This document shows, piece by piece, positions 1 to 37,347 of a DNA stretch of 42,671 nt. The stretch comes from a virus. Its lineage: Duplodnaviria; Heunggongvirae; Uroviricota; Caudoviricetes. The stretch lies in IMG/VR virus record IMGVR_UViG_2529293144_000007; one strand, given 5' to 3'. The stretch's first letter is position 1. Every line of letters starts with the position of its first letter. Position numbers and translations under genes: made by a program. The notes under the pieces were generated by a model that was given only the letters and a program-made list of their open reading frames with translations, had not been told where the DNA came from and searched no databases.

Positions 1-2160
1 CAGACCTGCTGCCCCCTGCGTATTGTCTGTCAGCGCGGCTACCCGACCTTTTGAAGCCAGATTAACTGATGATACTGCTGTTCCACCTGACGGTAGCGCC
101 CCGATCTCTGATGCCGTTGGCTTATTTCTGGAGTTATAGTCCCTTCGCCAGCCAGGTGAATAATCTGTTCCGTGATTAATATAGGTAAACTGGGCGTTGG
201 TTGTTCCGCCACCGCTGGATGTGGTCGGAGTGGTAATGCGGATCGTCATCGCTGACTTTATCCCCATTACTTCAATGACAGCTCCGGCGAGATGAATATT
301 ACCGCAGCCAGTATCAGTAATGATTTTATTATTGCCATAAGACCAGGAACCCTTGCACATCCAGTATGGATGGTTAAATGCTCCCTGAGAATCCAGCCAC
401 TCGATAAACTGTGCAGTCGTCCAGTTTCCTGTTGTTGTGCTTACTGACCCACCGAAGGCACGGCAGGCACCAATATTTTTCGTAAAGGTGTCTTTGCCAG
501 GGATATCCGCACCGTTCTGATCTTTCTGCAGACGTTTCTCAGCATTGTCATTGGCTGCTTTTACTGCCTTTGGCGTTGCCGCCAGCGTTTCAGACGTGCT
601 GTTGGTCGCGCTGCTTAGCTGGATTATCCCTTTCTGTGCTGTCGTTGCATCCTGTGCGGTGTATTTCCCGTTAGCCAGGTCATACGCGGCCTTAACGGCT
701 TTTGGTGTTGCCGCCAGTGACTCGGAAGTGCTGTTAGTCGCACTACTGAGCTGTACTATCCCCTTTTTCGTCGTGCTCGCATCCTCAAGTGCCACGGCGG
801 ATGCAATATCCTCTGCCCGTTTTGCCGCTGTCTCAGCGCGCGTTGCTGCAGATTCCGCCGTACTTTTGCTCTGAGCTGCTGCCTTCGCACTACCAGCAGC
901 CTCTGTCGCCTTCGTGGATGCCGTCGTGGCGCTGCCCTTCGCTGCTGACGCCTGTCTGGTCGCCTCATCTTTTGAAGCAGACGCCGATGATGCCGATGAC
1001 GCCGCCGAACTGGCGGACGATGCCGCTGCCGTTTTTGAGGATTCTGCACGGGTTTCCGACGCTTTCGCGTTCGTTTCGGATGTCTTCGCTGCGGAAGCTG
1101 ACCTCGCTGCTGCCGTGGCCTGCTCAGTGGCTTCGCCAGCCTTCGTTGTGGCTGTTGAAGCGGATGATGCGGCGCTTTCTGCCGATTTTCCGGCGGCGGT
1201 GGCACTGGCTGAGGCCTGCCCGGCACTTGTTGACGCGGCACTGGCAGACGACGCAGCCGCTGTTTTTGAGCCTGCCGCAGCTGAGGCGCTCTGTCCCGCT
1301 GCCGTCTCAGAAGACCTGGCGTTCGTCTCGGACGTTTTTGCCGCCTTCGCGGAATTTCCTGCCGCCGTTGCCGAGGAAGCTGCGCTACTGGCGCTCAAGG
1401 ATGCGTTCGTTTCTGATGATTTCGCTGCCTCTTTTGAGGCCGCCGCATCCCGGGCTGAGGTGGCAGCTTCTGACGCTTTCGTGGTCGCGGTGGATGCAGA
1501 AGTGGCGGCTGATTGTTCTGACGCTGCGGCATTCGTTTCTGACGTTTTCGCCGCACCGGCACTGGTAGCTGCCACGCTTGTTGAGGACTCTGCAGCGGCA
1601 GCACTTTTTGAGGCTTCAGTGGCCTTTGTTGATGCCGTTCCTGCGCTGGAAGACGCTGACTGAGCCGACGAAGCGGCCTGTCCGGCTGACGTGCTGGCTG
1701 CACGTGCTGAATCTGCAGCATCAGTCGCATGGGTTGCCGCCTCACGGGCAGATGTGCTGGCATCGCCGGCTGACTTCTTCGCGGCTGCCGTGTTCTGTGC
1801 CACTACGGACGCGTTACGCGCCACCTCTTCCACCATCAGTTCAAAACGGCGCAGTGCCTCCGGACGGGCATCATCCTCCGTCATGGCACCGAGAAAATCA
1901 TTCAGCGTACCGGGTTGAGAATCTTCATACACGGTGATGGTCCCGGCATGTGACGGCGGGAATCCTTCCACCAACAGAATAACGCTGTACTGACCGTACT
2001 CAACGTCCATGCTGTAACGCCCGGCTTCATCCGGATTTTCTGAGGCCAGCGTGTTCACCACCACCGTGGTGCTGTTACGTTTTGCTTTCAGCTGGATTGT
2101 GCAGTTCTGTACCGGTTTTCCTGTGCCGTCTTTCAGTACACCTGAAATCTTTACTGCCAT
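1..2160 (-). CDS. stf: side tail fibre protein, 3'-partial (ORF runs off the window start)
   Basis: Manual translation from ATG at 2160..2158 (GGGGTG RBS upstream) gives MAVKISGVLKDGTGKPVQNCTIQLKAKRNSTTVVVN..., matching the lambda Stf N-terminus as recalled, followed by Ala/Ser/Thr-rich repeats. Frame checked open in segments 1..600 and 1620..2160. Absent from the ORF track because there is no in-window stop. Confidence 0.75.
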   Translation of the reverse strand, partial: MAVKISGVLKDGTGKPVQNCTIQLKAKRNSTTVVVNTLASENPDEAGRYSMDVEYGQYSVILLVEGFPPSHAGTITVYEDSQPGTLNDFLGAMTEDDARPEALRRFELMVEEVARNASVVAQNTAAAKKSAGDASTSAREAATHATDAADSARAASTSAGQAASSAQSASSSAGTASTKATEASKSAAAAESSTSVAATSAGAAKTSETNAAASEQSAATSASTATTKASEAATSARDAAASKEAAKSSETNASLSASSAASSATAAGNSAKAAKTSETNARSSETAAGQSASAAAGSKTAAASSASAASTSAGQASASATAAGKSAESAASSASTATTKAGEATEQATAAARSASAAKTSETNAKASETRAESSKTAAASSASSAASSASSASASKDEATRQASAAKGSATTASTKATEAAGSAKAAAQSKSTAESAATRAETAAKRAEDIASAVALEDASTTKKGIVQLSSATNSTSESLAATPKAVKAAYDLANGKYTAQDATTAQKGIIQLSSATNSTSETLAATPKAVKAANDNAEKRLQKDQNGADIPGKDTFTKNIGACRAFGGSVSTTTGNWTTAQFIEWLDSQGAFNHPYWMCKGSWSYGNNKIITDTGCGNIHLAGAVIEVMGIKSAMTIRITTPTTSSGGGTTNAQFTYINHGTDYSPGWRRDYNSRNKPTASEIGALPSGGTAVSSVNLASKGRVAALTDNTQGAAGL

Positions 2161-8680: not shown

Positions 8681-11600
8681 TACCGATATGCTCCACTTAA
8701 CCGACCACCATCACGGGCCTGCTGTTGCATAAAGTCCGCTGCCGCTTTTTTCCCAAGGTCATAAACCACCTTCAGGGCAGCCGGACCTATCTGCCCGTTC
8801 GTGCCATCGTTATTGATCTCGATGTTGTACTGCGGGGCAAACATCGCCATACCTGAACCACCAATATCCGCCACAACCCCCAGCTTACCGTCAGCACCAC
8901 GACGCAGTGGCAGAATGGCTTCAGGTCCAGCTTCCCCCATCACACCCGCGCCTTTTGCAAAAGCAAAAAACGTCGGACGGTTAACCACCGTGCCACTGTA
9001 GCGACTCAAATCAGCCGACTGATAAACACCGCCATCAGCATTGGCTACAAAATCAAAAGGCAGCGCGGAAGCAATGCCTTTTACCGCTTTCATTAAAGCT
9101 ATCTGAGCCATGATTCTGGACATATCTGACAGCACAGAAGAGGTGAAGGATTTGAAATTGAGTTTGCCTGTAGTACAGAATGTCGCCAGCCAGTCACTCA
9201 TGCTACTGAACGCAGACGTGAACAACTGTTCCACTGTCCCGGCTGTGTTATCCGCTTTCTCAGTGACATTCTGGAGTGCACGCAGGACTCCGTTTTTCCA
9301 ATCACCCTGAGCAATTTCAAGCTGTTGCCAATAACGGCGATTCTCATTCAGTTGTCGGTTCAGGCTCTCCGTCAGCGCCTGCTCGGCCTTTCTGTAGTCA
9401 TCCGTGTTATATGTCCCTTTCTGCTCACTATCCCGCCTCAACTGCTCCAGCTGTTGCTGGTATTTCTGGCGAAGACTCAGTTGTACCTGATATCGCTGCC
9501 GCTGCTGATCACCCATACCCACCGTGGCGATATCCAGGTCATGTTGCTGACGCTGAGCGCGCTCTTCTTCAGCCAGTTGACTGGTCAGCTGAATTGTTTT
9601 TTTCTTCAGCTCGTTGAGTGCCGTCTGTTTCTGAAGCTCCTGCTGTTTTACATCCAGCAGCGTCAGTGCCTGAATCAGTTCATCTTTACGGGCCAGCACA
9701 CTCTTTTCATCTGCCGTCAGTTTTTTCCCGTCCAGGTCGCTGATGCGCTGCTGCAGAGCCAGAAGCTGTTTATGCGCTTCTGTCATCTTTTCAGTGGCAA
9801 TGCCTGCTGACTGTCTTGCAGCAGCAATCTGCCCTTCCACCTGTGCCTGTTGCTGACTGTACTGCAGCAATAACCGGGTGGCCTCATCATTACGGGTTTC
9901 GCGTGTTTTTTTCTTACCGGATGCCAGGGCTTTCTCGTAACGTTCATTTTCACGTTGTATCGCCGCATCCCTGACAGCCTGGTCGGCGTACTGCATGGCA
10001 TTAATACGCGCAATTTCACGCTGATGTCGTGCTGCTTCCGTTTCATTCATCCGGTTCAGTGCAGCATTTTCAGCATTACGTCGTTTCTGTTGCTCCTGAT
10101 AATTCCGCTCTGCCTGCTCTTTTGCATCCTGCAAATCCTTCTGGCGTTTTTTCTCCTGAAGATCGTTAAGACGCTGCTGATCGTATTCAACCTGAGAAGA
10201 TGATGCCGTCCAGGGGAGTCTTTTCGCCCGCGACACTTTCTCCTGTAAAGCGGCAATCTGTTCATCCAGCGAGTCTTCACGACCAATATTCATGGCCGCA
10301 TCCCAGAAACGACTCCACAAATCAGACAGATACTTCAGCGTACTGCCAAGCGCATTGAGGTTATTATCAATATCCGCAGTACGCCGACCGGTTTCCTCTG
10401 CCAGTGCAGACATGGCTATCCGTGCAGCATCACTGGACCGTCCCTGATCCCCAAGGACACGTATCTGCTCAAGCTGAGTGGCAGTAAGAAAATGCAGCTC
10501 ATTGTCCAGAGCCTTCGCGGCATTTACAGGATCATCCTTCAGCCGCTTAAACTGATTTATGGTATCGCTGACCGACTGGCCAACCGATCGCTCCATCTGT
10601 GCGGCAGCTCTCGCCACCATACCGATATCGTTTCCACGAAATGCACCACTCCCCACCACCTGAGCCAGCGCACCGGCTGCAGCATTTTGCGTGATACCAT
10701 TCCCGGAAATAGCACGACTAAGCGTCCACAGCTGCCCGGCAGTGACTCCGGCATAATGCCCCGTCAGCGACAACTGGCGGTTAAATTCTTCCCCCTCCTT
10801 CTGACCGTCATACCAGGCTTTACCCAGACCATAGACGGCCGCGGCAATACCGCCAATAACCCCGCCCAGCATCATGCCTTTCGGTGACATCAGTGTGTCT
10901 ATCCATCCGGCACGGTTAGCCAGCGTTATCCCGGATCCCCTCAGCGCACCTAAATTGCCGCGAGCCAGTTCACCTATCAGAACGCCTATCTCCTGGCGGG
11001 CCGCTGCACTTTTCAGCCCCAGCGAATGCGTGGCTTTTCCTGCCTGCTCCATTTTGCGGATATACACTTCTGCAGCACTGCTTACCCCCAGCTGGGCAGC
11101 CTTAGCACGAAGCAACTCAGAAGAAGAAAGATTCTGGCGGGTTGCCTGCTCTTTAAGCTGACGGATAAACGCCACTTTCTGTCGGGTAGCCTCTTCCTCA
11201 GCCTGTGTAAGAACACGGGTTTTCGCCGTAACCTCAGAAATCAGCGCCAGATAATCCTGCTGACCAATCCCGCCACTGTTTCTGGCCTGTCGGATCTGCT
11301 GCTGAATACGCTGTAATTCCTGCAGCCCCGCACTGGCCTGTTTCACACTGTCAATCTGACGATAAAACGCAGCAGCCGCTTTATCCTGAGCCTCCGCCAG
11401 AGCCATGGCCTGCGCCTGTTCCTCGCGCATTTTCTGGCTCAGCGCCTCCATGCGCTGGCGGGTTTTCTCCACCTCGCGGGCCATGCGTTCATGAGCCTGT
11501 GCGTTCTTCTCCACCGTCTGCGCATGGACGGATGCGGCTGTTGCAGCCGAAGAAGCCGCCTGCGTTGTCTGCCGGGCGGCCTGAGTCTGACGCTCCATAA

Positions 11601-25464: not shown

Positions 25465-25830
25465 CTAACGATCCATCTCTAGCTCAATTTCTAACATCAT
25501 TAACATGCCATCAACTACACCTTCAGCCTTTTGCAATAAACGCCCAACCCAGCAATCAGAACGCCCATGTTTACGGGCAAGCGCCATAAACGTCATACCA
25601 CCTACATAATAATCCACTAATAAATCGTGCAAATCGCTGTTGTTCTTTTTCAGGCGAGCCATGCACCCACAAATGATCATCGCGTCATCGTCACAACATT
25701 GCGGGCGGGATTTTACTTTTGAAGGGATTAGTCCTTTAAATCCTGCAGCAATAGACGACCAGGTGACATCCTCGTGATTATTTGCCACCCATGCACCCCA
25801 ACGTTCAAGAACCATTTGAATATCACGCAT
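25465..25830 (-). CDS. late-gene antitermination protein Q (phage 82 / QuuD-like)
   Basis: Sequence from [34 protein letters not shown] with Cys cluster ([12 protein letters not shown]), matching the recalled Q82/QuuD family. Confidence 0.85.
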
Positions 25831-25847
25831 CAACTTTCTCCACAAAA

Positions 25848-30465: not shown

Positions 30466-30804
30466 CTATTTCCCTGAATTTACGACGAAACTGTTCGAGC
30501 GGACTGAAGCATTCATGCTCATAACCTTCGCGGAGGTAGATAACCCGTTGTGTTTCCGGCTCCCAACGAATGACTCTGACGGGCACTCCGTAGTGATCTT
30601 TGAACCAGCGGTTAACTTGTCGCAAAGGACTGTCTCCTTCTGCCGGTTGAAATCACCCACAGCCCACTCTGCAAAGCTGTGGGTTACAATTTCCCTGTCA
30701 CCTGGTACATTCACTGCATAGCAATATTCCACCTTCGCTTTTCCACCCGGTACAGGAAGCGCAATCAGTTGCGAGCGACGGTAGTGTGTTGTTAAACTGT
30801 TCAT
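30466..30804 (-). CDS. hypothetical protein
   Basis: 112-aa ORF packed between the CII-like and replication genes; no recognised motif. Confidence 0.4.
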
Positions 30805-31370
30805 GCGTTAGTTTCTCCACAACCAGAAGCAATCGACGCCACGACGCCCGGAGCTGCACACTCGCGGGCGTCATTACTTTCTGAAATGCAAAAAATTTTG
30901 TAGACAAGTGCTGCATGCTCCTGCAGCTTCGAAATTGAGAGATACAGCTCGTCGTTAATTGCTGTCTTCTCATGCGGTTCCACTACACCGTCTTCGATTG
31001 CTGAACGAATCTGTTTTGAATAACTGCCGATCTGTTCAATGACTTCCAGCAGACGCTGGTTAATATCGGCGTTGTCCACATCCTCGACGTCAGGAAGAGA
31101 CACAAATACGCCATTTGCAGACTGCGCCACAGCATCAGCAATGAAGTGAGTGCCACCAGCACGCTGTAAAACCATTGCCCATCCCAGCGGGAAAATCTGA
31201 TCGCCATCTGCACGAAGGCGGTTGAATAAAGCGTTTTCTGTTACATCGAGCCAGTCACCCGCTTCAGCGTAACCACCCGGCAACGCCGCGATAGTTTTTC
31301 TGACAGCTTTCACGTACCACTCAGGCTGTTTTTCTATTTTCCAGTGATGCTTACCCACGATTAGCCTCAT
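30801..31370 (-). CDS. CII-like regulatory protein (YdaT family, putative)
   Basis: 189-aa ORF directly downstream of the cro-like gene; family assignment from memory and position. Confidence 0.5.
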
Positions 31371-31605: not shown

Positions 31606-31628
31606 ATATGTACCTCCGGTGTACATAT
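31606..31628. promoter_or_regulatory. candidate operator (inverted repeat ATATGTAC-N7-GTACATAT) overlapping the cro RBS
   Basis: Perfect 8-bp arms seen directly in the cI/cro intergenic region. Confidence 0.45.
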
Positions 31629-31656
31629 TACATGATTGAAATGAACCTTCAAGATA

Positions 31657-31677
31657 CTTGTACCTTAACGGTACAAG
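31657..31677. promoter_or_regulatory. candidate operator (inverted repeat CTTGTACC-N5-GGTACAAG)
   Basis: Perfect 8-bp arms, 16 nt upstream of the repressor start codon. Confidence 0.5.
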
Positions 31678-31692
31678 GGTTTTAATTTCGTT

Positions 31693-32367
31693 ATGAAAAC
31701 AATCCATGACATCCGGCGGTCTAACGCCAGAAAACTGAGAGATGGTGTTGGCGGGAATTCTTCCTTTGCCACTATGATTGATCGCGAGCCAACCCAGACC
31801 AGCAGGTTTATGGGAGATGGTGCTACTAAAAATATCGGTGACAGCATGGCACGACACATCGAAAAATGTTTCGACCTGCCTGTCGGATGGCTCGATCAAG
31901 AACACCAGACAACGAACATCACAAAAAAACCTGATGTTTCAATCACTAATAAACAAATCACATTAGTCCCTGTCATATCATGGGTACAGGCCGGAGCATG
32001 GAAAGAAGTTGGATATTCTGAGGTTGATTTGAGCACAGCAGAAACGTATCCCTGCCCTGTACCCTGTGGGGAAATGACTTATATCTTGCGGGTGATAGGT
32101 GATTCAATGATTGATGAGTACCGCCCGGGAGACATGATTTTTGTCGATCCTGAAGTACCTGCCTGCCACGGTGACGACGTTATTGCATTGATGCACGATA
32201 CAGGTGAAACCACCTTCAAAAGGTTGATAGAAGATGGGACACAGCGTTATCTCAAAGCGTTAAACCCAAACTGGCCTGAGCCTTACATTAAGATCAACGG
32301 TAATTGCTCTATAATTGGTACAGTGATTTTCTCAGGAAAACCAAGAAGATACAAAATCAAAGCCTAA
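31693..32367 (+). CDS. CI-like prophage repressor (HTH plus S24 LexA-like peptidase domain)
   Basis: N-terminal HTH region and C-terminal S24 signature (GDSM ... FKRL Ser/Lys dyad); divergent from cro. Confidence 0.85.
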   Translation: MKTIHDIRRSNARKLRDGVGGNSSFATMIDREPTQTSRFMGDGATKNIGDSMARHIEKCFDLPVGWLDQEHQTTNITKKPDVSITNKQITLVPVISWVQAGAWKEVGYSEVDLSTAETYPCPVPCGEMTYILRVIGDSMIDEYRPGDMIFVDPEVPACHGDDVIALMHDTGETTFKRLIEDGTQRYLKALNPNWPEPYIKINGNCSIIGTVIFSGKPRRYKIKA

Positions 32368-32378
32368 TCAATGTTTAT

Positions 32379-32402
32379 GAACCTGCTTCGGCAGGTTTTT
32401 TT
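32379..32402 (+). terminator. intrinsic terminator after the repressor gene
   Basis: GAACCTGC-TTCG-GCAGGTT followed by a T7 run, 12 nt after the stop codon. Confidence 0.75.
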
Positions 32403-32406
32403 ATAC

Positions 32407-32434
32407 TTGACAATGTACCTTTGAGATACATAAT
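32407..32434 (+). promoter_or_regulatory. candidate sigma70 promoter (TTGACA-N16-CATAAT), possibly pL-like
   Basis: Consensus -35 and near-consensus -10 seen directly after the terminator; flanked by direct AATGTACC repeats. Confidence 0.35.
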
Positions 32435-32774
32435 GTACCCAAGCGAAACAACGAACAGGCAGGACGCCCACGAAGTAGCCGCCTGGGGCATATGAAGTCC
32501 AGGATGATTCGTTAGCAACAAAAAAGCGCCCTATAGGACGCTTCGCTCTTTAACAATCTGGAGATCCCCAACACTTAACGGGATTTTGGCTTCGGTTCTG
32601 GCGGTGAAGGACGAGGTTTTAAGGGTATATGATCCTCTTTCCATGTATATATAAATGCATTCATTTGGTCATCTCAATATAGAATCCATTATTAATTCAT
32701 ACTCATAAAGCCTGTGTGACTTTGGTGATGGTGGTCTGGGCTTTGGAGGTACATGGTTAGGGATTATGGGAATT

Positions 32775-33254
32775 CTATTTGTCATTATTACACCTTTTTG
32801 ACCGAGGCAAATCTCCAGCAAACCATGCGATAACGCTATGCATGAATGATATTTCTGACTCATCAACACGTCCCAGCGCAATACAGGTCCGTTTGAACGC
32901 AGCATCTTGTAAAGATCTCCATGGATTACTATCAGCGTCTTGAACCTTTAAAAACCGAGTGCGTAGTTCGTCATCAGAAAGGGAGGAAAACTCAACAATC
33001 AACCTTTTATACTGTCGCATCTGTTCCTTTGATAAGCCAGCTTCCTGCCCAAATTGGTATACCAATTGAAGCACCGACAAAATAGCTACAGATGCGCCAA
33101 AAATAAACATATTGCTATATGGCGCAAAAACAGAAAAGCCCAAGACAATGAGAACAAGAGTTATGCTCTTGTCTATCCGATTTAAAAGGGTGTAATTCAT
33201 TTTCTCAAGAAAGAAAGAATAATGAATATCGAATGCTAGATCGTCTCGAGTCAT
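32775..33254 (-). CDS. hypothetical small membrane protein (2 TM) in the immunity region
   Basis: 159-aa AT-rich ORF with hydrophobic segments ITLVLIVLGFSVFAPY and FIFGASVAILSVLQLVY; weak RBS. Confidence 0.45.
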   Translation of the reverse strand: MTRDDLAFDIHYSFFLEKMNYTLLNRIDKSITLVLIVLGFSVFAPYSNMFIFGASVAILSVLQLVYQFGQEAGLSKEQMRQYKRLIVEFSSLSDDELRTRFLKVQDADSNPWRSLQDAAFKRTCIALGRVDESEISFMHSVIAWFAGDLPRSKRCNNDK

Positions 33255-33634
33255 CTCTATTCCCTTACATTTCAGGTTTCGGCTCAGGGATCGGTGCTGG
33301 TCTCTGATTTACCGGAACATGAAATTTTTCATTGCTATCTACGTACATATTTCCTTCCTACCTGTTGTTGGGATATCCAGATTATACCGAATCCTTGTTG
33401 TTGGGGAATAACCAAGTCCACCTCGCCTGATGTGGCTAAAAGCAGGCACATAACAGCTAAGTATTTTCAACCAGAGAGAATCCTTAGCGTTGTGGTGAAT
33501 GCGGCTCAGCGCACGCGGGTTAAGGTTGAGGCTGACAGTCGACCTTCTGTGGATACCCACCCGTCTGGTGTACAACCTTCGCCAGGCACCGGGAGGCACC
33601 CGGCACCACAACTTTATGCTGTGTGTTGTCTTGG

Positions 33635-33680
33635 CGGTACCAGCTTGTACCCTTGCTTCCGGCTGGTACCGTCCTTTTTA
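33635..33680 (+). terminator. terminator-like hairpin in the early-left leader
   Basis: Perfect 10-bp inverted repeat CGGTACCAGC / GCTGGTACCG with a 17-nt loop (containing CTTGTACC), followed by TCCTTTTTAC. Confidence 0.45.
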
Positions 33681-33892
33681 CAAAACAGAGAAGAGCATCA
33701 TCGGACGACGGGCTCATAACCCAATCCATCCGGGCGGCTGCCACCGCAGGTGTTCTTCTCTGTTTTGTGGAGAAACTAACCGCCCCTACGGGGGCATTTA
33801 TGGAAATGTAATTGACTCAATAATCGACGGACGGTGAGGGCTTCCTTTTACCCGAATTCAGCGCGGTGCAGCGCATATACGTGGAGAACAAA

Positions 33893-34429
33893 ATGTCATT
33901 TATTAAAACTTTTTCCGGGAAGCATTTTTATTATGACAGGATAAATAAAGACGACATCGTTATTAACGATATCGCAGTTTCCCTTTCAAATATCTGTCGC
34001 TTTGCAGGACATCTTTCACACTTCTACAGCGTCGCCCAACATGCGGTGCTTTGCAGCCAGCTGGTACCGCAGGAATTTGCTTTTGAAGCGTTAATGCATG
34101 ATGCAACAGAAGCGTATTGCCAGGACATCCCGGCTCCACTGAAACGCCTTCTTCCTGACTATAAACGGATGGAAGAAAAAATAGACGCCGTAATCCGTGA
34201 GAAATACGGGTTACCCCCGGTTATGAGTACACCCGTGAAATATGCCGATCTCATCATGCTGGCAACCGAACGCCGCGATCTCGGGCTTGATGATGGCTCT
34301 TTCTGGCCTGTGCTGGAAGGTATCCCGGCAACAGAGATGTTCAACGTGATTCCACTGGCTCCAGGCTATGCCTACGGGATGTTTATGGAACGCTTTAACG
34401 AATTATCGGAGTTACGCAAATGCGCATGA
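33893..34429 (+). CDS. HD-domain phosphohydrolase
   Basis: HD motif (LMHDATEAY) and upstream His; start at MSFIKTF with GGAGAA RBS. Confidence 0.7.
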   Translation: MSFIKTFSGKHFYYDRINKDDIVINDIAVSLSNICRFAGHLSHFYSVAQHAVLCSQLVPQEFAFEALMHDATEAYCQDIPAPLKRLLPDYKRMEEKIDAVIREKYGLPPVMSTPVKYADLIMLATERRDLGLDDGSFWPVLEGIPATEMFNVIPLAPGYAYGMFMERFNELSELRKCA

Positions 34430-35053: not shown

Positions 35054-35260
35054 ATGCTGAACCTCGATTGTGTTCCAATCTCAACTTATTGCAAAGAAAC
35101 TGGCGAAACTCCTGAAGCAATAAACAAACGTGTACAGCGCGGTGTTTGGCGTGAAGGTGTTCAGGTTTTAAAGGTTGAAGGCGTTAAGGAGAGGTGGATT
35201 GATCTTAGTGAGGTTGCAAAATGGGCCAGACAAAACTGCTCAAACTACCGCGCGGCGTAA
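35054..35260 (+). CDS. excisionase-like DNA-binding protein (putative Xis)
   Basis: Small basic protein immediately upstream of and overlapping int; start at MLNLD with GGAGAAA RBS. Confidence 0.55.
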   Translation: MLNLDCVPISTYCKETGETPEAINKRVQRGVWREGVQVLKVEGVKERWIDLSEVAKWARQNCSNYRAA

Positions 35261-36396
35261 CAATCAGGAAACACCGCCAGGGCGAAACGATCAATATAAC
35301 TTTCACCTACAAAGGAGTTAAATGTCGTGAGCCTCTTTCCAATCTGGAAGTAACACCAAAGAACATTAAATACGCCGAGCGCACACTCGGCGAAATTCAT
35401 AATAAGATCGAAAGGGGAACATTCATTTATGCGGAATATTTTCCCCGTTCTGCTCGTTTGAAAATTTTTGGTAATGCTGTTGCAGGCAAAACGGTAAAAA
35501 TGTACCTGGACGAATACCTTGAAATCTGCGAAACGAGAAAACTCTCACCCTCAACGATTGGTGGTTATAAAAAATGCCGTAGTGCGTTAGCCTCACTCCA
35601 CATTTGCCCTGCAAGTGAATTAACACCAGCAATCCTGAAAGCGTGGATTCAAAGCCAGAAAACGACCTTAAAAACAATTCGCAACCAGTTATCTTTCCTG
35701 CGGTCAGCACTTGATGAAGCCGTAACCGATGGGGTACTTCAAATTAACCCCGTATCGTTGGTAACTGCTTCGCGCTACCAAAGTGATAAGTCAGAAGCAG
35801 AAAGCAGCTACGTGGTTGATCCGCTATCACCAGCAGAAGTTGATGCATTACTAGCAGCAGCCGGAAACAAACAATGGGAAAATCTGTTCCGGTTCGCCAT
35901 ACATACAGGCCTGCGTAGTTCTGAATTATGTGCCCTTCGTTGGCGTGATATCGATTTTGTAGGGAAAACTGCCCACGTTCAGAACGCCAGTGTAGTTGGC
36001 GTAATCAAGGGGACAAAAACAAAAGCCGGTACACGAAAAGTTGAACTGAATGAGGAAGCAATGGCAGCTCTGACAAATCAGAAACCGTTCACGTTCATGA
36101 AGGACGCTACTGTCTTTGAAGATCCAAAAACCAATAAGCCGTGGGCAAGTGCTGATGCAATTAGAAAAAAAGCATGGGTCCCGACATTGAGAAAGGCAGG
36201 TATTCGATACAGAAACCCATATCAGACTAGGCATACATTCGCCACCAGCCATATCAGCCGGGGAACAAACCTTTTCTGGCTTGCAGCTCAAATGGGGCAT
36301 AAAGGGCCAGAGATGCTTTTTAGACACTATGGTCGGTATTTGAAGGAATATGACAACAATACATCTTTAAATAAATTGAAAACAATTAATAAATAG
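35221..36396 (+). CDS. tyrosine integrase (lambda Int family)
   Basis: 391 aa with N-terminal arm-binding-like region and C-terminal catalytic signature (RHTFAT ... HKGPEMLFRHYGRY). Confidence 0.9.
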   Translation: MGQTKLLKLPRGVTIRKHRQGETINITFTYKGVKCREPLSNLEVTPKNIKYAERTLGEIHNKIERGTFIYAEYFPRSARLKIFGNAVAGKTVKMYLDEYLEICETRKLSPSTIGGYKKCRSALASLHICPASELTPAILKAWIQSQKTTLKTIRNQLSFLRSALDEAVTDGVLQINPVSLVTASRYQSDKSEAESSYVVDPLSPAEVDALLAAAGNKQWENLFRFAIHTGLRSSELCALRWRDIDFVGKTAHVQNASVVGVIKGTKTKAGTRKVELNEEAMAALTNQKPFTFMKDATVFEDPKTNKPWASADAIRKKAWVPTLRKAGIRYRNPYQTRHTFATSHISRGTNLFWLAAQMGHKGPEMLFRHYGRYLKEYDNNTSLNKLKTINK

Positions 36397-36403
36397 ATAA
36401 TAA

Positions 36404-36429
36404 TCCCCATCAGTAAATACTGATGGGGA
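36404..36429. other. perfect 11-bp-stem hairpin immediately after int
   Basis: TCCCCATCAGT-AAAT-ACTGATGGGGA; overlaps the start region of the next ORF. Confidence 0.4.
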
Positions 36430-36437
36430 CTGAAAAG

Positions 36438-37235
36438 ATGTCAGGTAACATGACTACAATATTATCTTGCTTTGCTGCTCTTGTTTCTGCTGCGACTGCT
36501 ATATACGCAATCAAACAGTCGAACTTACAAAGAAGATTGTCATATAAGCCACAACTTTATATTGAGGATTACCGTGACAAATACTTTGCTCCAACTACTA
36601 ATACCTTCGACCATGGTATAAATGGCAGACCTACCTTTAATCTCCATGAACTTTCAATAATAAACATTGGAAATGGCTCAGCTCAAAATATAAAATACAA
36701 ATGGGTATATAATTATAGCAATGCTTTAAAGGACATTTCATCTATCATTGAAAAACTGGGAGCCTCAAAAAACAATAAAATTAATTTATTCAATTATGAA
36801 GTCGTTGAGCATAAAAAAATAATCATTAACGATAAATGTTTTAACATCCATTTCAATTTCAACGAGAAATATATATTACCTCAACATCAAATAGAAGGTA
36901 ATTTAAAAAACACAATAATACACTTGCCAATTATATTAACAACTGTACTATATAACTTGATTAATCTTAGATTATTAGCGGGTGAGACATTAGAAAGCGT
37001 TCATGGTCCTAAGCTAGTTATTACATACCAAGATTCAGGCGGCGCTCTCATCACTGATCATTTTGAGAGTGAATTTATTCTCAAATCTTCCACACAAAAT
37101 ACAAGTCAGACCATACAAAACGTTAGAATGACATTTAGGAAATTGGACCGTCATTGGACACAGCAATCACATCAATGGAGCCGTAAAAGTCACGCAGAAA
37201 CTACTGAAGAAAAAGAAATCAATTATTTCAGTTAG
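36438..37235 (+). CDS. AT-rich cargo protein of unknown function with N-terminal TM anchor
   Basis: About 266 aa from MSGNMTTILSCFAALVSAATAIYAI; located between int and the att fragment. Confidence 0.6.
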   Translation: MSGNMTTILSCFAALVSAATAIYAIKQSNLQRRLSYKPQLYIEDYRDKYFAPTTNTFDHGINGRPTFNLHELSIINIGNGSAQNIKYKWVYNYSNALKDISSIIEKLGASKNNKINLFNYEVVEHKKIIINDKCFNIHFNFNEKYILPQHQIEGNLKNTIIHLPIILTTVLYNLINLRLLAGETLESVHGPKLVITYQDSGGALITDHFESEFILKSSTQNTSQTIQNVRMTFRKLDRHWTQQSHQWSRKSHAETTEEKEINYFS

Positions 37236-37242
37236 TTATAAC

Positions 37243-37279
37243 ATTTCGGACATGGGTTCAACTCCCGCCAGCTCCACCA
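37243..37279 (+). other. ssrA (tmRNA) 3'-end fragment, candidate att core / prophage junction
   Basis: ATTTCGGACATGGGTTCAACTCCCGCCAGCTCCACCA matches the last ~37 nt of E. coli tmRNA as recalled, with two mismatches; upstream sequence is unrelated to tmRNA. Confidence 0.75.
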
Positions 37280-37313
37280 CTTTTTAGTTGTTTGAAGTTC
37301 AATGAAGTCTACT

Positions 37314-37347
37314 AAGCCCACACAGCACAAGCTCTGCGGGCTTTTTT
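37314..37347 (+). terminator. terminator-like hairpin after the ssrA fragment
   Basis: AAGCCC...GGGCTT inverted repeat followed by TTTTTT. Confidence 0.5.

Follow-up and report, generated by a model that had tools for sequence, protein, structure and literature searches.

Conserved structured-RNA modules, among them a diverged STnc100/PasD-type domain, in the early-left operon leader of a lambdoid Escherichia coli prophage

The viral record IMGVR_UViG_2529293144_000007, a stretch of 42,671 nucleotides analyzed in full and referred to here as the window, is a lambdoid E. coli prophage whose interval at 33294–33866, upstream of an HD hydrolase gene, had been singled out in a preliminary description as a structured, GC-rich non-coding leader of the early-left region. 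Comparative analysis identifies this interval as a mosaic of separately conserved structured-RNA modules within the leader of the pL operon. Its non-coding character, its folding and its position on the pL strand are all borne out. The core of the mosaic is diverged kin of the STnc100/PasD small RNAs, so that of the options raised at the outset (an antitermination RNA, a regulated terminator or another non-coding RNA) the last came nearest to the truth. This stretch is 100% identical in several RefSeq chromosomes; the closest phage kin of the window are Shigella SfII, SfIV and SfV, with Salmonella ST64B more distant. More than half of the complete E. coli genomes searched (3010 of 5426) contain matches to portions of the interval.

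The modular anatomy was surveyed by BLAST of sub-segments against ~135 related loci. On the pL strand the modules follow a fixed order, namely L, U (optional), A, linker, B and C, which in the window and with the adjoining spacer map as follows.

32447–32516, plus strand: element L, a ~70-nt structured RNA at the predicted 5′ end of the pL transcript
33364–33455, plus strand: conserved upstream block, with one or two small hairpins and a UUGUUGGGGAAUAA-type loop, followed by core U
33418–33455, plus strand: core U, CCACCUCGCCUGAUGUGGCUAAAAGCAGGC, of which ~30 nt are near-invariant
33456–33613, plus strand: module A, composed of a 5′ hairpin (33456–33488) and a multi-stem domain (33489–33612)
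33614–33632, plus strand: linker, a conserved single-stranded segment (core GCUGUGUGWAGUCUU)
33633–33679, plus strand: module B, a predicted intrinsic terminator with a 12–13-bp stem, a 17-nt loop and U5
33676–33775, plus strand: module C, a long hairpin whose basal stem spans 23 bp and has its 5′ arm starting in the U-run of B
33782–33892, plus strand: yfdQ–yfdR spacer, including a small GC hairpin at 33781–33796

The order L, (U), A, B, C recurs in >30 of ~130 L-bearing loci, and A, B and C stand together in ~28; the architectures seen comprise L-C, L-U-C, L-A and L-A-B-C. Module A occurs without the others in the ban operon of phage P1 and upstream of kil in Cronobacter phiES15, and module C does so in Klebsiella and Citrobacter phages. 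As a whole, 33440–33900 folds on the plus strand at −180 kcal/mol (z = −5.3 against shuffle controls), compared with z = −2.7 on the minus strand. The plus strand is assigned as the RNA strand from the U-run, from G-U pairing and from the orientation of the modules, which is fixed, and not from the folding of A or C.

The possibility that the interval encodes a protein was examined in detail. Open reading frames (ORFs) of at least 30 aa are present in all six frames across 33294–33866, confirming the earlier remark that ORF fragments lie on both strands, and none has a family match. The candidate gene is SfII_35, annotated in phage SfII as a hypothetical protein of 112 aa; it corresponds to window positions 33499–33837, and its ATG-initiated frame is open in both the window and SfII. 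No Pfam or PHROG family matches it, nor does any Pfam family match a 141-aa ORF at 33294–33719. Relative to ST64B (~77% identity), substitutions in the 112-aa frame are distributed 16/22/17 over codon positions 1/2/3, and the indels, of 1, 1, 20 and 2 nt, break the frame; more distant variants from Klebsiella and elsewhere display the same flat pattern, with the frame closed. The 3′ third of the ORF is owed to a deletion junction described below, and the conservation of the stretch is explained by covariation between paired columns. The homologous DNA is unannotated in PhiR29, ST64B, phiNP and the Stx2c phages, where yfdP/sb37 starts just after it. A conserved coding frame, which the preliminary description had set against an RNA element, was thus sought across homologues and none was found. 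We give a small protein gene at SfII_35 next to no credence, and by these comparisons the interval is non-coding.

Module A provides the link to a known RNA family. At gathering thresholds Rfam returns nothing for the entire window. In the covariance-model search that had been proposed as a check, the best match is STnc100 (RF02076), which aligns with 33459–33682 on the plus strand over the full model length, terminator included, at 39.6 bits (E = 1e-6), below its gathering score of 47; close relatives score 35–42 bits against the same model. Other matches in E-value mode, such as DicF and ar7, are noise over hairpins, leaving STnc100 as the sole credible one. The core fold of STnc100 is present in the window: the closing stem of the multi-stem domain (GUUGUGGUG/CACCACAAC), GGUGAAU with the first hairpin, and the invariant CCGGGAGGCACCCGG hairpin beside the 3′ closing strand. 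The 3′ terminator of the family is likewise found, at 33633–33679. The further GC hairpin pointed out beforehand, CCGGG-AGGCA-CCCGG, lies within module A at 33589–33603.

A covariance model made from 13 diverse module A variants (R1) retrieves 47 copies, which include the window (117.6 bits), bona fide STnc100, three copies in the P1 ban operon and the phiES15 element. One IMG/VR contig, L025, carries two bona fide STnc100 copies (210–405 and 545–712, minus strand; 72.2 and 52.6 Rfam bits) plus a copy of the early-left type (10153–10337, plus strand) downstream of its own L element. Because both types reside on this contig, they are paralogues rather than a single locus. Compensatory changes, the second check that had been called for, were found: in the R1 alignment, 10 of 17 pairs of module A are changed on both sides, as in the replacement of GUUGUGGUG/CACCACAAC in the window by GUUGCGGUG/CACCGCAAC in P1. 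Paired cells amount to 92%, compared with 30–64% once partners are slid, and the covariation is matched by 0 of 500 shuffles; these figures come from an alignment fitted to the R1 model. Together, these results place module A as a diverged RNA domain of the STnc100/PasD type, forming an early-operon subfamily. The three STnc100-like domains of phage P1 (L007; 2507–2659, 2740–2843 and 3001–3126) are unannotated in the P1 record and sit within the C1-controlled ban operon, between tRNA genes and tciA. Known copies of STnc100 are expressed, one of them Northern-confirmed in EDL933 (PMC5331693). An Hfq-binding small RNA overlaps STnc100 downstream of stx2 (PMC12711010), and PasD, identified by Hfq RIL-seq, is structural kin of STnc100 (bioRxiv 10.64898/2026.05.13.724894). 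A literature search on small RNAs of ST64B returned nothing relevant.

Between A and the terminator, the linker is kept in the window, ST64B, phiES15, Klebsiella and other variants despite differences in the interior of A and in the terminator, and it may serve as a seed or a protein-binding segment. Module B contains the perfect 10-bp inverted repeat with a T-rich tail noted earlier at 33635–33680. CGGTACCAGC (33635–33644) pairs with GCTGGTACCG (33662–33671), the stem extends to 12–13 pairs, and TTTTT follows at 33675–33679. The hairpin is stable (−23 kcal/mol, z = −4.6), and 0 of 200 shuffles fold as well. In ST64B, phiES15, Kp4866-6 and loci L038 and L026, the B position is occupied by a hairpin and U-run, with at least five sequences unrelated to one another, and each early-left variant that continues into C presents A, then the linker core, then a hairpin with a U-run. 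The terminator-like hairpin of the first description is accordingly best read as an intrinsic terminator, predicted from sequence and kept through these replacements. Since the terminator is retained while its stem and loop sequences turn over fully, termination or a stable 3′ hairpin appears to be under selection.

The loop of the B hairpin carries CTTGTACC (33644–33651), and the observation that an oR operator half-site lies there is correct. Its proposed operator meaning is not borne out, and CTTGTACC in the loop was rejected as an operator. CTTGTACC occurs three times in the 42.7-kb window against 0.85 expected, two of the three being halves of an oR palindrome, and the full operator TGTACC-N4-6-GGTACA is absent from the window outside oR. 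The same loop stands behind at least four unrelated pL/operator types, and a phage with TGTACC-type operators has a different B loop. Because the one extra copy is within chance and the loop does not track operator type, we regard the match as coincidence.

Module C folds at −46.4 kcal/mol (z = −6.4). Inside its basal stem lie a CCGGA...UCCGG hairpin, which carries the invariant GACGGGCUCAUAACCCAAUCC, and a variable second hairpin; a conserved GGAGAAAC follows the module. The number of loci with C is 53, and in some of these A or B is missing. An alignment of 15 diverse sequences has 97.8% of its cells paired and compensatory changes in four pairs; many G-U pairs mark the plus strand as the functional RNA strand. 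No Rfam family matches the module. A T-arm-like motif, GGGYUCAUAWCCC-AAUC, is present in C (33711–33731) and also beside the STnc100-like copies of P1. A tRNA-like gene was looked for with ARAGORN, which reports none here, and the T-loop is without the invariant A58.

Downstream of C, homology changes partner. The segment 33782–33892 has 92–94% identity with the DNA immediately preceding yfdR where yfdP and yfdQ are kept, in phages as well as in the CPS-53 element of E. coli K-12 (L004 5224–5335, L005 8874–8985). In such loci yfdP/sb37 starts ~40 nt after module C. Both yfdP and yfdQ (DUF2303) are absent from the window prophage, as in SfII, with the junction at 33776–33800, and comparison across these loci shows module C joined to the yfdQ–yfdR spacer through a yfdP–yfdQ deletion. 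The last ~110 bp of the interval accordingly lie outside the element and belong to this spacer.

The placement of the mosaic in the early-left operon relies on the following surrounding features.

25465–25845, minus strand: Q (Pfam Phage_antitermQ, E = 2e-51)
30801–31370, minus strand: CII-like gene
31693–32367, plus strand: cI (Pfam Peptidase_S24)
32379–32398: cI terminator, directly before the pL-type promoter
32407–32434, plus strand: pL-type promoter, TTGACA-16-CATAAT, 11 of 12 matches in the promoter scan
32412–32450: two oR-type operator copies, overlapping the pL-type promoter
32523–32544, minus strand: terminator of the 159-aa gene
32775–33254, minus strand: 159-aa ORF (phrog_6315, function unknown, E = 2.8e-51)
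33893–34429, plus strand: yfdR-type HD 5′-deoxynucleotidase gene (Pfam YfbR-like and HD_3; RefSeq name yfdR)
35221–36396: int, adjoined by a 270-aa gene at 36423–37235 (phrog_7259)

The near-consensus promoter at 32407–32434 is, by its sequence and surroundings, the pL equivalent. The oR operators at 31608–31677 are palindromes of the TGTACC-N5-GGTACA type, and repeat families D1, D5 and D7 connect them with the pL-side operators. Because a pL-type promoter with operators lies upstream on the same strand, the interval, ~850–1400 nt from the predicted pL start, is assigned to the sense strand of the early-left operon. The pL-side leader runs for ~1.45 kb without a plus-strand ORF; yfdR is the first plus-strand gene after pL in this prophage and is followed by DUF551, xis and int. 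Just past int and the 270-aa gene, partial matches to transfer-messenger RNA (tmRNA) and IsrM occur at 37177–37347 (plus strand), probably marking the prophage attachment site at ssrA. C4 antisense RNA and isrK, both above Rfam thresholds, are found in the right operons of a related Stx2c phage and ST64B (L002 914–1102 and L003 909–1097, minus strand); neither RNA is present in the window.

The 159-aa gene, lying antisense in the pL leader between pL and the interval, is an accessory insertion (moron), and its product, judged by sequence, is probably a membrane protein. Relatives have other inserts, or none, at the same place. A perfect rrn-type boxA, GCTCTTTAACAA, lies at 32546–32557, directly after the terminator hairpin of this gene (junction 32523–32557). 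This boxA–terminator junction is seen again, beside different inserted genes, in ~10 of 99 loci, without being a general feature of relatives; downstream of L, boxA is not enriched (15 loci sense versus 21 antisense). The segment 33255–33363 is not common with relatives, homology beginning only at ~33364, and it probably comprises the promoter and 5′ untranslated region of the 159-aa gene. A palindrome, ATGAAATTTTTCAT, is found in this presumed promoter region at 33319–33332. From there the upstream block leads into core U, which is 92–100% identical in 26 loci, some of them without an adjoining module A. The stems ahead of U vary by locus (CUUG/CAAG, UCUCG/CGAGA, ACUGG/CCAGU), and the block 33364–33455 gives no thermodynamic folding signal (z = +1.4 versus shuffles).

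Element L, which is unannotated, lies ~800 bp upstream of the interval, and the predicted pL start precedes it by a few nucleotides. It consists of an outer stem, an invariant GGC/GCC hairpin, an invariant single strand (CCACGAAGUAGCC) and a hairpin with a variable stem, and includes a 23-nt invariant core. L is present in 54 phage records and at least 120 IMG/VR contigs, the phages being those of eight or more enterobacterial genera (Escherichia, Shigella, Salmonella, Klebsiella, Citrobacter, Yersinia, Pectobacterium, Pantoea and Providencia). Each phage has a single copy, just after the repressor gene irrespective of immunity type. In its stems, nine of 13 pairs have undergone compensatory change and 98.7% of cells pair, a level that 0 of 500 shuffles equal. 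In 42 of 104 distinct loci, with many different promoters, the L core begins 19–23 nt past the best −10 hexamer. L is absent from Rfam, and a literature search with its sequence strings returned no paper. With filters off, searches found neither a second, pR-side copy of L nor a match between the L model and HK022. From its position and invariance, L may make contact with some conserved machinery of the host, for example RNA polymerase, and L is the best candidate in the window for a put-like antiterminator role.

We favor, with moderate confidence, the reading that A and B form a small RNA of the STnc100/PasD family that also gates downstream expression from within the pL-operon leader. Upon firing of pL, polymerase would transcribe L, pass antisense through the accessory gene and enter A. 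Polymerases halting at B would, we infer, release a discrete RNA of ~190–225 nt with a 3′ hairpin and U-tail, able to act in trans; relatives in this form are known as Hfq-associated small RNAs (PMC12711010, bioRxiv 10.64898/2026.05.13.724894). Polymerases that read through would continue into hairpin C and then yfdR through xis–int. B would thus gate delayed-early expression in vivo, with read-through arising from modification of polymerase, most plausibly by L.

Several observations count against this reading. The STnc100 match misses the curated threshold, and single-sequence folding fails to separate the strands for A and C. Canonical copies of STnc100/PasD belong to late regions, near Q, stx and lysis genes, downstream of stx2B and elsewhere in lambdoid phages (PMC5331693, PMC12711010, PMC12370729, bioRxiv 10.64898/2026.05.13.724894), whereas the copy in the window is early-left, downstream of cI and pL, with Q 8 kb off on the opposite strand. 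No promoter of A's own reaches the scan threshold, the best being CTGATG-16-CATAAC with 7 of 12 matches; with no convincing sigma-70 promoter directly upstream, the RNA would have to come from processing or else be made only once induction has occurred. Nor does the U block lie beside A in every locus. Sites complementary to the linker occur in the window at chance level only. Downstream of L, at least one sense terminator is found in 67 of 102 loci, and antisense terminators are more numerous. The P1 copy beside tciA is without a terminator, and A may accordingly be a purely internal part of an mRNA.

In a purely cis-acting alternative, A, C (and U) would be processing, stability or anti-Rho elements of a long leader or, in a variant, decoy or anti-defence RNAs co-expressed with phage tRNAs, with no small RNA acting in trans. 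It would accommodate the ~1.45-kb leader free of plus-strand ORFs, the independent reshuffling of modules among phages (L-C, L-U-C, L-A), the three A-like copies amid the tRNA genes of the P1 ban operon, of which one abuts tciA without a terminator, and the T-arm-like motif shared by C and the surroundings of the P1 copies. Early-left A, however, is nearly always accompanied by a maintained terminator and conserved linker, the anatomy of a released small RNA, and relatives of A have been detected as discrete Hfq-associated RNAs (PMC5331693, PMC12711010). ARAGORN identifies no tRNA-like gene in the window or its relatives apart from the known tRNAs of P1, and the T-loop likeness, as noted, is incomplete. 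Taken in both its forms, we judge this alternative unlikely. A regulated terminator of the riboswitch or attenuator kind would have A sense a ligand, protein or RNA and set termination at B, thereby controlling yfdR–xis–int. A complex junction domain placed ~20 nt before an intrinsic terminator in an operon leader is indeed the classical layout, and conservation is high in the loops and junctions of A (GGUGAAU, CCGGGAGGCACCCGG). Yet no conserved alternative (antiterminator) pairing was found that would join A with the 5′ arm of B; in ST64B, Kp4866-6 and phiES15 the terminators are wholly different without any matching change in A; the interior hairpins of A are swapped wholesale between variants, unlike a ligand pocket; and canonical family members reside in unrelated gene contexts (PMC12711010). 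We consider regulation of this kind improbable.

That the interval is itself an antitermination site, whether a put-like RNA or a nut-like site for an unrecognized N-like factor, had been suggested from the presence of Q and the apparent lack of N. The premise holds, in that Q is present and none of the ORFs from cI to int has a match to an N-type family; several A variants also have a boxA-like GCUCUU just 5′ of the closing stem, and CCGGG-AGGCA-CCCGG is of boxB size. The inference from it fares worse. HK022 putL, taken from the phage record with its numbering checked against PMC9378689, does not align with the interval, which resembles neither putL nor putR in sequence or in fold (two stems with the conserved U28/G35 context), and the nearby L model shows no resemblance to HK022 put either. 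A put site lies immediately past an early promoter; the interval is ~1 kb from its promoter (~850 nt after the pL start), and the put-like 5′ position is taken by L. No boxA–boxB pair of the lambda type is conserved at the interval, the combination of a CGCUCUUA-like boxA, boxB and N was not found, the boxA-like word before A is degenerate in the window (AUCCUUAG), and no candidate N-like ORF is conserved alongside across loci. Antitermination by the interval is in our view very improbable. Moving that role to L gives a wider reading of all-RNA early-left control throughout this large group of lambdoid phages without N, in which L would represent a new class of processive antiterminator, analogous but unrelated to put, carrying polymerase past B, while A and C would be released or exposed, A as a small RNA and C as a leader for yfdP. 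We put this forward tentatively, as a possible but doubtful extension.

The core makes up a novel subfamily, set in a context of its own, within an already known family of prophage small RNAs, and modules C and L seem to be motifs not described before. The STnc100/PasD family is widened by a second, early-operon subfamily found in phages of E. coli, Shigella, Salmonella, Cronobacter, Pantoea and Klebsiella and in the P1 ban operon. Two conserved RNA motifs outside Rfam are exposed, C and L, the latter with very strong covariation. If L is an antiterminator, it would explain delayed-early expression in widespread lambdoid phages without N and would provide a second, independent case of RNA-only processive antitermination. 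For annotation, the “hypothetical proteins” that SfII, SfIV and related records place here very probably do not represent genes.

Among known systems, the early-left element stands nearest to STnc100/PasD. It is likewise prophage-borne and shares with that family the closing stem, after which come GGUGAAU and the first hairpin, as well as the CCGGGAGGCACCCGG hairpin and a linker with a terminator; the interior hairpins of STnc100 are unlike those of module A in the window, and the element in the window is coupled to the extra modules U and C. DicF-type RNAs, from the Qin dicB operon and the dicF-like region of P1 ban, resemble it as non-coding RNAs from inside an early, repressor-controlled operon, and the A-like copies of P1 share the ban operon with that dicF-like region. 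Kinship in sequence or structure is lacking, the Rfam DicF match (17 bits, E = 1.3) covering the terminator hairpin only.

Further parallels are offered by the antitermination systems of lambdoid phages. As in lambda nutL/tL1, a terminator stands between pL and the recombination/integration genes, so that downstream expression needs read-through; the window differs from lambda in having neither an N gene nor a conserved boxA–boxB pair here. With HK022 the window shares a lambdoid genome without N and terminators in the early operon, and L stands right at the beginning of the pL transcript, as putL does (PMC9378689). RNAs of the put type act in cis to promote read-through of terminators, and mutations in the zinc-binding domain of the RNA polymerase β′ subunit block this effect; for L such a role is a proposal. 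HK022 put is built of two long stems and a triplex and has a pR-side partner, putR, whereas L is a closing stem with two hairpins and has no second copy downstream of pR; in sequence, putL and L have only ACGAAC and CAGGAUGA in common.

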